Source: Dictyostelium discoideum (Eukaryota). From it: 64,000 nucleotides of DNA. Location: assembly GCA_000004695.1 (NCBI GenBank), contig CM000151.3, positions 2,528,001 to 2,592,000 of the forward strand. The letters run 5' to 3'. Both the position numbers and the translations under genes were made by a program. The notes under the pieces were generated by a model. The model was not told the origin of the DNA. It did no database searches and saw only the letters and a program-made list of their open reading frames with translations. Shown here piece after piece: positions 11,802 through 16,227 of this stretch (position 1 is the first letter of the stretch; each line of letters begins with the position of its first letter).

Positions 11802-13126
11802 TTAATTATAAAAATTAAATAAATAATCAATAGTTAAAGAATATTGTTTTAATTGTTGATAAATATGATGAATTAAATTTGGAATTTTTGATTCAAAATA
11901 TAATAAGATAGAATCTTGACTTGATAAATACTCTAAAACTTCTAAATTTGGACGTGATTGTTGATTTTGAAATTGTTGAATGATTGCTCTTTTAATTTCT
12001 TTATGATGAGCAATTGTATTTCTAATGAATCTAATTAAATCTCTAACTTTATCATATTGATATGAAATGGTTATTTTTGAACCTTTTGTTGGTGTTAAAA
12101 GATTGGTTACATCAATTAAATGATTCCAAGAATCATTTAAAAATGGTTCATCATTATCATCACAATGATTTAATTGTTTTGTTAACTTTGAATTGTAACT
12201 TGAGTTTGAAGGTTCTTTAATTAAATTTAAAGCTGCATCAATGAATTGTATTTTCTTTTCTAAATTCCAAAACAATGGATGATTTAAAACATTTTGGATG
12301 GTTGGTCTAATTGATTCATCTTTTGAAATCATTGATTTAATTAAAGTACAAGCCAATTGATTTGAATTCAATGGAGTTAGATTCATTTTATTTGAAATTA
12401 TATTAACTATACGAAATAATTTATCATTACCAAATGGATGTTGACCATTTGTTAAAAGATAAAATAAAATACAACCCAATGAAAATATATCGACAGATTT
12501 TGTCATTCTTTTACTTTGTAATACTTCAAATGGATGATAACCACCTTGACCTGTTGGTATATTACTTGTAAATGAATATGATGATTCAACTTCCATTTTA
12601 CTTAATCCAAGATCTGATATAATGAATGAGTTATTTGAACTATTATTATTATTACTAGTTTTACCAATTAATGTTAAAATATTACGTGGATTTAAATCAT
12701 TATGAACAATATCATGAGAATGAAGGAATTGAATACCAAAGAGAATATCTTTTGCAAGTTCAATAATTGATTTGTTTGATGAAATAACAAAATCATTTAA
12801 TTTACCACTTTCAACTAAATTCTGTAATGATCCATCACATAATGTTAAACCTAAATATACATGAAGTTTATCTTCCTCTTTATCAATATATCTAATCATA
12901 TTTGAACAATTTTTACTTGTTAATGAAATTAATGCTTCAACTTCTTTATTGATAAGTGGATTGAATGCTTTTTGCATTTGTTTAATTGCAACTGGTATTT
13001 TATCACTCCATAAACCTTTAAATACTAATGTACCATTTGAACCTCTACCTAATATATTTGATTCATTTCTATTAAATTTAAATTTACCAATTGATACAAA
13101 ATCTTCATCTTGAATTATATTATTTA

Positions 13127-13198
<72 letters not shown>

Positions 13199-16100
13199 CA
13201 TTGATTAAATTTTGTTTTTTATTATTTTCAATTATTAATTTTTTAGTTTGTTCATTTTTGAATTGTGATGTAATTACTTTTGCTGGTGTTGTTGTTGTTG
13301 GTGTTGTTGATGTTGTTATTGTTGATTTTGATTTTTTATTATCCTTTTTAACAGAAATCCAAGATGGTTCACCAATTCCACCCCATTTCATATTACTATT
13401 AATTTGTTTTTTATTAATATTAATCTCTTCATATTCATCAATTGTTTCCATTTCTTTTTTCTTTTGATTTTCTTCTTCTAATTGAATTTCAATAATTGAT
13501 TGAATTTTCTTTACAGAATCAATTGGAGTTTCAATTGATGATTTTAATAAAACTACATTATCATTTTTTGGTTCTAAAATTGGTGTTATTGATTCTAATT
13601 GAATAGTTAATGATGATGATGGTTGTTGTTGCTGTTGTTTTAATAATTGAAGTGGTGGTGGTTGTTGTTGTTGTTGATTTAATAATGGTAATTGAAAATT
13701 TTGAATTTCTTTAATTTCTAATTTTTTATTAATTTCATCAATTTTTAATTGATTTTGTTGAATATTTTTATTAATTTCATCAATTTCTTGAATACTTTTT
13801 TGTTTAATTTCATCAATTTCTTTTTGTTTTAATAATTCAAATTCTTTTTCTTTTTGTTTTGATAATTCTTTTTCTTTTTCTTTTTGTTTTTGTTTTTCAA
13901 TTAATTTTTGTTTTTCATCATCTTGAAGTTTTTTATATAATCTTTTTCTTTCCAATTTTTGTAGTTTCTTTTCTCTTTTTTTCATTTGTTCTTCAAGTTG
14001 TTTTTCTTTTTGTTTTTCAAGTTTAATTAAGAGTAAGTCTTGTTTTTCTTTTAATCTTTTCTCTCTTTTTAATCTTTTTTTAATTTTTTCTTGTTGTTTT
14101 TGTTTCTTTCTTTTTTCTTCAAGTTCCAACTCTTCCAATAGTTCAGATTCAGCGATTCTAGATTGATTTTCTCTCTTTGAAAAAGTTAATAGCTTTCTTG
14201 CCATTTGTTTTAATTGTTGATCATTGAAAACATTTGAATTTTCAAAACAAGTTTCTAAAGCCGACAAATAATCTTGATCAGAATTTGAAAAGTTTGAAGT
14301 GAAACCAAAGAAATTAACACTACTTGAATCATCATCTTCAAAATTAATTAAATCATCTTCAAAATTATTTCTAATTATATCTGAACAACTTAAAAAAGTT
14401 TTAAAAATTAATGGTACTGGTATGATTGATAATAATAATCTTGGATTTAAATCAAAGAATTTATAAAACATTGGACGTTCTTTTAAATTTAAAATATCAC
14501 TACCAATATAAGCAAAGAAAACCAATGGAATACTTTGTTTACTCCATCTATTTGGTGTTGAAACCATTGATTCGCAAAGCATAAAAGTTTTAAAACTATC
14601 ATTTTGAACTAATAATGATTCTATCATTTGAATTTCTTCAATTAATGTTGAAAGTATTAAAATTCTTTGAGAAACACCCATATGATTACAAACTAAATTT
14701 GATAATAAAGCAATAATAGTTGTTGACGGTGCATTATATTTTAATAATCTTGAAATCATTGAATCAACTTTATAATTTGAAAATTCTATTAAACTTTCTT
14801 CTTTAATACTATTTTCATCTTCATTATGATCACCATCATTATTATTATTATTATTATTGTTACAACCAGAATGATGATCATCATCATCATCATAATCATC
14901 ATAATCATCATCATCATGATTATTATTATTAATTGATCTAATTGATATATGATATCGTTCTTTTAAAATTAAATCTTCAATTTCATTAATTTCAGTATTA
15001 AAATGAATTAAATTTTTTGTAAATAAATTAATATAATCTTTTTGTTTATCAATTGGAATTTGATGATTATTAAAATCAAAAGAACAATTTAAAATTCTAA
15101 AATGATTTTCAATTGGATTTAGCGAAGATCTTGATTCAATACCCCATAAACTATTTCTTGATGGTATTGAAGTTATAAATGTTGGGAATTTTGAAATTAA
15201 AAGTTTTGCAACATTGATACTAAAGTTTGTAGTTGTAAACTCTAATAATCTAACGAGATCAATCGATAAATTTGAATTGGTTGATGTTTTAGTTCTTTTA
15301 TAATTTTCATTTGCATCTGATGATGGATGAATTGAAAAATTTAATTTATTATTAACCTTATCCAATTTGAAAAATTCAATTAAAAATTTGGAAGCAATTG
15401 AAAATGAATCAAAATTACAAATTAATCTCCAAACATTCTCCAATTGTTCATAACTATTTGAATCGATTAATAATGTTGAAATGAATAAATCTGAGCAATC
15501 ACTTTCAATTATACCAACCAATGATAACTGGTCACTTTTATAACGATAAATGTAATCTAATTTCTCCGATTTCCAAACGCCATTACAAACGATTCTTTTA
15601 TAAACTTCATTATTTAAATGCAATGCTTTCTTGAATTGTTGATATCTTTGTTGATAGGTTTTTTGTTTCCATTGCTCGATTGGTTTAATAAGATTACAAT
15701 AACTACGTACTTGAAATGAAATACCTCTAACAATAAATTCAATAATATCCATTGATAAATAATCTTTAAAACAATTTAAAAAATTAAAAACAATTGATGA
15801 ATTTTGATTCTTTTCTTCGCTACCATTATTATCTTTTTCAAAATAATCACAAATTACATGTTTATTAATTTCTTTTGAATTTTTTAAAATTTCTAAATAT
15901 TCTTTTAAATTTTTATTTAAAAATTTACTTTTTTTTTTTTAATTTGTTTAATTATATTATATTATTAAATTAAAAAAGTTATAAAAAAATTATATATTTT
16001 TATTACCTTTCATTATAAAAAATTATTTTAAATTGATCTAATGAATTTAAATTTTCATTTTCGTCATATTTTAATTTACTACATAAATTAATTAAACATT

Positions 16101-16227
16101 CAAGTACAGTTGAATGATAATGTTGTTTTTTAAATGGGAAAATAAAAATATTTTTTTGAATATGATGATGAACTTTAATTAAGTCATATTCATAATCAAT
16201 TATTAAATTATTTAATAATGAATTCAT
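11802..16227 (-). CDS. IRE1-like protein (kinase + KEN/RNase domain) with no luminal sensor domain; 2 exons: 16227..16007, 15927..11802
   Basis: The 1316-aa ORF has a long K/E-rich coiled-coil segment, a protein-kinase domain ([14 protein letters not shown]…VAIKQ…IISDLGLSK) and a C-terminal KEN domain (HPLFW…, …[15 protein letters not shown]…) as in IRE1/RNase L. The frame stays open upstream of the first ATG (…[35 protein letters not shown]…). A 79-bp intron (donor AG|gtaata at 16006, acceptor …aaaaag| at 15928) joins it in frame to the 74-codon ORF 16003..16227 ([15 protein letters not shown]…). Confidence 0.7.

Follow-up and report, generated by a model that had tools for sequence, protein, structure and literature searches.

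IrlB of Dictyostelium discoideum, a predicted soluble IRE1-like endoribonuclease with a conserved variant of the kinase catalytic loop

Introduction

Two described systems resemble the protein studied here, IRE1 and RNase L, both of which join a kinase fold to a domain known as KEN, for kinase-extension nuclease. In IRE1, the binding of ADP-Mg controls oligomerisation and RNase activity (PMC3158555). RNase L binds ATP in the canonical manner; although a three-residue rule first led to its classification as an active kinase, it is now considered to be kinase-inactive, and the binding of ATP activates its RNase (PMC4718504). In Dictyostelium, the kinome paper of Goldberg et al. (2006) recognised an IRE family of seven members, all of which have RNase(L) domains and only one of which, IreA, appears to be membrane-bound (PMC1420674). 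Here, we analyse a 64,000-nucleotide stretch of Dictyostelium discoideum DNA (“the window”; GenBank assembly GCA_000004695.1, contig CM000151.3, positions 2,528,001 to 2,592,000 of the forward strand). It contains, on its minus strand, a two-exon gene that is almost certainly irlB, whose product belongs to a set of six soluble paralogues, the IRE1-like (Irl) proteins.

The irlB gene, its 5' exon, the soluble nature of its product, the RNase(L) domain and the HNDLNPRN string in the kinase catalytic loop were all published in 2006. The kinome paper graded the kinase domain of IrlB as “kd” in quality and “a” (active) in predicted activity; it assigned the protein no function and discussed neither the loss of the catalytic-loop Lys nor a parallel with RNase L (PMC1420674). 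The detail added here beyond the published gene model comprises a check of the KEN and nucleotide-binding residues, the conservation of the loop in relatives, the parallel with RNase L at the same loop positions, and the description of an N-terminal region of roughly 660 residues as a domain that is predicted to be all-helical and occurs in dictyostelids only.

Results and Discussion

Identification of the locus as irlB

The spliced coding sequence is 4347 nucleotides long, is in frame and specifies 1448 amino acids (the exons and all other features are collected in Table 1). Its translation is identical to the published IrlB protein (DDB0220009) over the 399 N-terminal residues that are printed in the supplement of the kinome paper, i.e., there is no sequence difference within the printed portion. 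The string RNESN falls at residue 1027 of the spliced model, which is the number that it bears in the published IrlB alignment, and the motifs VAIK, HNDLNPRN and DLG are those tabulated for DDB0220009 (PMC1420674). The identification rests on this paper because no D. discoideum protein came out of the protein searches. An exact look-up in a collection of 15 billion proteins contained neither the 1448-residue protein nor the 1316-residue product of the internal reading frame described below. A word-indexed homologue search with the full-length query returned only 3 matches, the query being swamped by low-complexity words; with the kinase-KEN portion as the query, the same type of search returned 15, none of them labelled D. 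discoideum.

An initial annotation of this DNA had joined the long open reading frame (ORF) to a 5' exon by a splice between 16006 and 15928. That junction is well founded: it yields an in-frame coding sequence, the donor and acceptor are canonical, and the published IrlB has the same start. The intron has a GC content of only 5%, compared to 15% and 22% in exons 1 and 2, respectively; the window as a whole stands at 20.6% and has long A/T and Asn-codon runs. From an internal Met, a 1316-codon ORF (15752..11802, minus strand) runs to the stop codon, and its frame remains open upstream as far as the AG acceptor at 15928. Of the five invariant positions in an alignment of seven Irl N-termini (see below), three (D15, C49 and F66) are encoded by exon 1; because of this, and because the exon is present in the published protein, we regard it as real. 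It is not, however, an “extra” exon, as it had been called, since the published model already includes it. Neither is it a 74-codon exon at 16003..16227: the exon consists of 73 codons and 2 nucleotides, and the 74 codons belong to the unspliced ORF (16227..16003), which stops at an in-frame TAA that overlaps the GTAATA donor.

In the kinome paper, IrlB and IrlF are marked “C2dup”, meaning that they lie in the part of chromosome 2 that is duplicated in the sequenced strain, and the duplicate of IrlB is given as DDB0217342 (PMC1420674). An identical second copy of the irlB locus should thus exist, and the window may represent either copy.

The kinase-KEN module

Pfam recognises two families in the 1448-residue protein, Pkinase and Ribonuc_2-5A, and no other. 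When the protein was compared to the Protein Data Bank (PDB) with phmmer, the best matches were yeast and human IRE1 (1e-48 to 1e-46), which aligned across both domains, and all 16 KEN-containing sequence matches at E<=1e-15 were IRE1. An AlphaFold2 (AF2) model of residues 1014-1448, made from 19 sequences, had a predicted local distance difference test (pLDDT) score of 82.4 and a predicted template-modelling (pTM) score of 0.84; only the activation segment (residues 1181-1200) was disordered. Corroborating the sequence matches, a Foldseek search of the PDB with this model had IRE1 kinase-RNase structures in all of its top 50 positions (template-modelling (TM) scores of 0.66-0.85). By sequence and by model, IrlB is thus a member of the IRE1/RNase L superfamily, with a kinase fold that is followed directly by a KEN domain, and its initial designation as an IRE1-family paralogue agrees with the matches at 1e-48 and with the Foldseek result.

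Does this KEN domain retain the residues of a nuclease? In the alignment, Y1363, R1376, N1377 and H1381 of IrlB pair with the corresponding Tyr, Arg, Asn and His in IRE1 from yeast (KYHSSKLMDLLRALRNKYHH) and from human (YKGGSVRDLLRAMRNKKHH). In yeast numbering, the catalytic residues of the KEN domain are Y1043, R1056, N1057 and H1061. RNase L carries the same motif in the form FIRNLGEH. The retention of the RNase domain had been proposed at the outset, with the loss of catalytic residues on careful alignment named as the observation that would speak against it; all four are kept, in a domain that Pfam matches at 1.9e-10. The residues of the nucleotide-binding site are also all present and aligned: the beta3 Lys (K1056), the alphaC Glu (E1069), the loop Asn (N1156) and the Asp of the DFG position (D1179). 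In the picture that we consider best supported, IrlB would be a soluble endoribonuclease of the IRE1 family, with a KEN domain that is predicted to be catalytically competent.

Compared to IRE1 (yeast Ire1p, human IRE1alpha and Dictyostelium IreA), IrlB has a kinase and KEN module that is about 30% identical, of the same fold, and equipped with the same RNase catalytic and nucleotide-binding residues. It differs in that it lacks a signal peptide, a luminal sensor and a conserved transmembrane segment, in that it has instead a cytosolic N-terminal extension of about 1010 residues with no recognised fold, and in that its catalytic loop reads HNDLNPRN where that of IRE1 reads HRD[LI]KPxN.

A conserved variant of the catalytic loop

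The catalytic loop of IrlB runs from H1149 to N1156. In it, both the Arg of the HRD motif and the catalytic-loop Lys are replaced by Asn, while D1151 and N1156 are kept. The kinase motifs listed in the initial annotation, namely VAIK (K1056), HND, DLNPRN and D(L)G (SDLG, with D1179), can all be read in the sequence, and the alignment that it had called for sets HNDLNPRN of IrlB against HRD[LI]KPxN of IRE1 and HQDLQPQN of RNase L.

The loop is therefore a variant one, as had been noted, but to call it “degenerate” is an overstatement. Besides IrlA-F (table in PMC1420674), the string HNDLNPRN is shared by an IrlF-like protein (P0019, 1442 residues), by P0001 of D. purpureum and by P0004 and P0005, both from Acytostelium subglobosum; every non-dictyostelid match in our alignment of homologues reads H[RG]D[LIM]KPxN. 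Given this invariance across IrlA-F, D. purpureum and Acytostelium, HNDLNPRN is, as judged from the alignment, a conserved variant and not a product of decay. One could nonetheless imagine that IrlB is a redundant duplicate that is drifting toward a loss of function. There are six paralogues, IrlB sits in the chromosome-2 duplication, and much of its sequence is of low complexity. But the reading frame of 1448 codons is intact, even so distant a species as Acytostelium has the identical loop, identity to P0019 stands at 86% in the kinase domain, and all of the RNase catalytic residues are kept, unlike those of the RNase-dead relative P0005. This conservation already largely refutes the notion of decay, which we regard as very improbable indeed.

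The relative just mentioned merits a description of its own. P0005, a protein of 649 residues, is of the Irl type and has the HNDLNPRN loop, and its KEN domain is without the helix that bears Y..RN...H. It would thus be naturally RNase-dead, which suggests that the kinase-like module can be kept alone.

At the two replaced positions, IrlB has a parallel in RNase L. The human (4OAU and 4OAV) and pig (4O1O) structures read HQDLQPQN...DFD; like IrlB, they have amide residues where the Arg of HRD and the Lys of the catalytic loop would be. These structures were retrieved by a PDB query with an RNase L sequence. Further likenesses are that both proteins are soluble, that both have a kinase-like domain and a KEN domain preceded by a non-catalytic N-terminal domain, and that both keep RN...H in the KEN motif. 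The differences are that IrlB has no ankyrin match, even at a Pfam threshold of E<=10, that it has DLG where RNase L has DFD, and that its activation segment is of full length. Among the homologues there is also a protein of 1002 residues (P0003) that combines ankyrin repeats with a canonical HRDLKPGN kinase domain and a KEN domain (RFIRNAYAH), i.e., an architecture like that of RNase L in which the loop is apparently of the active type. When this ankyrin-kinase-KEN protein was used as the query in a PDB search, RNase L was not among the matches.

The N-terminal region

In the full model, about 1010-1030 residues precede the kinase domain (about 880-900 if the protein is read from the internal Met), and the figure of about 730 residues that had been given for this region is too small. 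The first 661 residues, which we refer to as the N-terminal domain, have few recognisable relatives. Pfam returned nothing consistent for them even at E<=10. When 1.84 billion representatives were searched exhaustively with phmmer, a single match emerged, the IrlF-like P0019 (E=5.9e-6), and a profile search with the de-repeated alignment of seven N-termini gave none. An AF2 model, made from 3 sequences, was all-alpha but of low confidence (pLDDT 41.5), and its best Foldseek match in the PDB had an E-value of 0.35, the hits being generic alpha-solenoids.

The alignment of seven sequences is made up of IrlB, fragments of IrlA, IrlC, IrlD and IrlE (PMC1420674), P0019 and P0001. In it, D15, C49, F66, F123 and F127 are invariant, and the motifs YNFDL, LC, LDDFKxHY and KFIxCFG are common to the N-termini of IrlB, IrlA, IrlC, IrlD, IrlE and the D. 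purpureum protein. Because motifs are shared among all of these proteins, the N-terminus of IrlB is, by the criterion of alignment, a genuine Irl-family domain, and one that is confined to dictyostelids. The same motifs, together with HNDLNPRN, D[LM]G, the KEN domain and the lack of a membrane anchor, place IrlB in the Irl family. The identity of IrlB to P0019 and to P0001, respectively, is 86% and 64% in the kinase domain, 61% and 46% in the KEN domain, and 24-31% and 20-27% in the N-terminus. The disparity between the N-terminal and kinase identities of IrlB and the IrlF-like protein may point to a fast-diverging N-terminal domain. A feature peculiar to P0001 (D. purpureum DICPUDRAFT_80608) is a CxC...CxH string in its N-terminal region (FSCDCQEYKKHQTCIH) that is reminiscent of a SWIM zinc finger; it is absent from IrlB, and Pfam has no match to it.

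The N-terminal domain is followed by a K/E-rich stretch and a low-complexity linker (Table 1). The former had been described as a K/E coiled-coil of 250 residues, but the block measures only about 155 (residues 662-815) and is heptad-like only around residues 775-815, where the occupancy of a/d positions by hydrophobic residues is 0.50-0.75. Over most of the block it is 0.25-0.50. The measure is a crude heuristic of our own, namely the fraction of a/d positions that are L, I, V, M or F; by it, the greater part of the block resembles a charged single helix more than a coiled coil. Residues 671-762 (13865..14138, minus strand) are very basic and rich in K and R, and might, in addition to forming a charged helix, serve as a nuclear localisation signal.

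Membrane topology

IrlB begins with neither a hydrophobic signal peptide nor a PQQ-type luminal domain, and Pfam finds no domain ahead of the kinase. A single 19-residue window exceeds a Kyte-Doolittle score of 1.6: residues 571-589 (given as 14160..14216, minus strand), with a score of 1.82. Could this segment anchor the protein in a membrane that would separate the N-terminal domain from the kinase-KEN module, in a topology like that of IRE1? Its score is above the usual cut-off, and it lies between the N-terminal domain and the linker. On the other hand, the protein has no signal peptide, the segment includes one Lys and two Pro residues, the aligned positions of P0019 and P0001 are not hydrophobic, and, according to the kinome paper, none of the Irl proteins has a membrane anchor (PMC1420674). 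We consider an anchored IrlB to be highly unlikely. Since its hydrophobicity is not conserved in the relatives, the segment is probably a buried helix. Hydropathy windows, with no dedicated transmembrane predictor run, revealed no conserved transmembrane segment between the N-terminal region and the kinase. The depiction of IrlB as a cytosolic protein with neither signal peptide nor luminal sensor is therefore consistent with our findings and with those of the kinome paper.

A proposed nucleotide-licensed RNase

How might such a protein be controlled? We propose that the kinase-like domain would bind an adenine nucleotide and form a dimer or oligomer, whereby the active KEN endoribonuclease would be assembled, as it is in IRE1 and RNase L. 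Nucleotide occupancy would be the licensing step, with weak or no phosphotransfer. The helical, Irl-specific N-terminal domain and the charged helical linker would govern activation, taking the place of both the sensor in the endoplasmic reticulum lumen that IRE1 has and the ankyrin sensor of RNase L. We put the probability of this mechanism as a whole, which draws on sequence, structural models and analogy, at about 0.58.

An element of this proposal is that the kinase-like domain is a pseudokinase. We lean toward weak or no phosphotransfer because the loop has lost the Arg of HRD as well as its Lys, and RNase L has substitutions at these same two positions; we judge the pseudokinase assignment to be somewhat better than an even bet. 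The likeness to the RNase L pseudokinase that had been drawn in the initial annotation thus holds for the two loop positions; for the pseudokinase status itself the most that we would say is that it is plausible, as features of the activation segment and the DLG motif speak against it.

These features are among several points that weigh against our proposal. The K/D/D rule predicts an active kinase, and the kinome paper rated IrlB as active (PMC1420674). K1056, E1069, D1151, N1156 and D1179 are all retained. IrlB departs from RNase L in keeping DLG and an activation segment that is Ser-rich and of full length, in which SS[YF] lines up with SSF in the activation loops of IRE1; xxE replaces APE, and the Asp of subdomain IX and the Arg of subdomain XI are kept, again unlike in RNase L. 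In overall sequence and fold (PDB phmmer and the top 50 of Foldseek), IrlB is nearer to IRE1 than to RNase L, from which it follows that the loop substitutions shared with RNase L are most likely convergent. The role of sensor is one that we infer for the N-terminus from its position in the protein, and the structural model of this region has a pLDDT of 41.5. Finally, the searchable literature yielded neither a functional study of any irl gene nor biochemical or genetic work on an Irl protein, and a 2018 review of Dictyostelium ER (endoplasmic reticulum) stress contained none of the terms “irl”, “IRE1-like”, “paralog” and “IRE family”; the activities discussed here are all inferred.

Several of the same observations would be accommodated if IrlB were an active, atypical kinase, possibly of dual or Tyr specificity, with an RNase that is switched on by trans-autophosphorylation as in IRE1. 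Tyrosine kinases have the catalytic loop HRDLAARN, with a catalytic-loop Arg. Arg1155 of DLNPRN aligns with that Arg and could replace the lost Lys; it is invariant in all Irl-type sequences, while the residue at this position is Q, H, G or D in IRE1 and RNase L. The five retained residues, the full-length activation segment, whose conserved Ser/Thr line up with SSF in the activation loops of IRE1, and the published rating also favour activity, and the kinome paper remarked that Irl proteins have no Ser/Thr at the position of PKA T201 and may accept tyrosine (PMC1420674). Against an active kinase, the Arg of HRD, the normal reader of the activation-loop phosphate, is an Asn in IrlB, the kinase-dead RNase L has substitutions at the same two positions, and we found no report of Irl kinase activity in the searchable literature. 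Taken together, these considerations make an active kinase distinctly less probable than the nucleotide-licensed pseudokinase that we favour.

Other genes in the window

The remaining genes that we identified in the window are listed in Table 1; they include two FNIP-repeat genes that lie about 13 kb apart. Together with the Dicty_CTDC-repeat and counting-factor-associated proteins, the FNIP-repeat proteins mark the DNA as that of Dictyostelium. A 1490-residue ORF (42821..47293) was considered as a second irl gene and was rejected, as it encodes a Sec7/BIG protein instead.

Table 1. Features of irlB and of its neighbours, in coordinates of the window.
Feature	Position	Strand	Remarks
irlB coding exon 1	16227..16007	-	221 nt; ATG at 16227; ends AG/GTAATA (exon/intron); 73 codons + 2 nt (Met1 to first two bases of codon 74)
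irlB intron	16006..15928	-	79 nt; GT..AG; restores reading frame
irlB coding exon 2	15927..11802	-	codon 74 third base to TAA stop at 11804..11802
Irl-family N-terminal domain, residues 1-661 (together with exon 1)	14166..15927	-	predicted all-helical; no recognisable homologue
K/E-rich helical stretch, residues 662-815	13704..14165	-	K+E 44-48% per 50-residue block
Low-complexity linker, residues 816-1013	13110..13703	-	Q/P, T, run of 29 Asn; no Pfam family match
Protein-kinase-like domain, residues 1030-1293	12270..13061	-	Pfam Pkinase 6.7e-34
Catalytic loop HNDLNPRN, residues 1149-1156	12681..12704	-	read from sequence; aligns to IRE1 HRD[LI]KPxN and RNase L HQDLQPQN
KEN domain, residues 1294-1448	11805..12269	-	Pfam Ribonuc_2-5A core 1319-1437, 1.9e-10; aligns to IRE1 KEN through C-terminus
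KEN catalytic motif Y1363-x12-R1376-N1377-x3-H1381	12006..12062	-	aligned with yeast and human IRE1 and RNase L
TDP1-like gene	420..2624	-	
Dicty_CTDC-repeat protein	3335..4417	+	
Kinase C-lobe ORF	5176..6357	+	probably needs upstream exons
GNAT acetyltransferase	10856..11512	+	
Short-chain dehydrogenase	16712..17626	-	
CfaA/B/C family (counting-factor-associated) protein	18637..19389	-	
Uninterrupted 1896-codon ORF	27090..32780	+	no Pfam family at E<=1e-5
Desaturase-cytochrome b5 fusion	34798..36867	+	
FNIP-repeat protein	38700..40175	-	
Sec7/BIG protein	42821..47293	+	1490 residues
FNIP-repeat protein	53380..54813	-	about 13 kb from the FNIP gene at 38700..40175
Tyrosine phosphatase	58710..59735	-	

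Implications

As a finding, the present analysis carries modest weight, the gene and its features having been catalogued since 2006. The biological interest that remains lies in the fact that a phagocytic amoeba has six predicted cytosolic RNases of the IRE1 family. Their likeness to RNase L at the same loop positions leads to a concrete hypothesis, namely that activation may be gated by nucleotide independently of phosphotransfer. If this is so, the regulated decay of RNA in the manner of RNase L would reach far outside the vertebrates. More speculatively, and with odds that we consider to be rather long, the Irl proteins could be the amoebal counterpart of RNase L: soluble, ligand-activated RNases for stress or anti-microbial defence, with a kinase-like domain that would have arrived by convergence at the two loop substitutions of RNase L and would gate dimerisation by nucleotide, and with sensors in the form of fast-diverging, lineage-restricted helical N-terminal domains.

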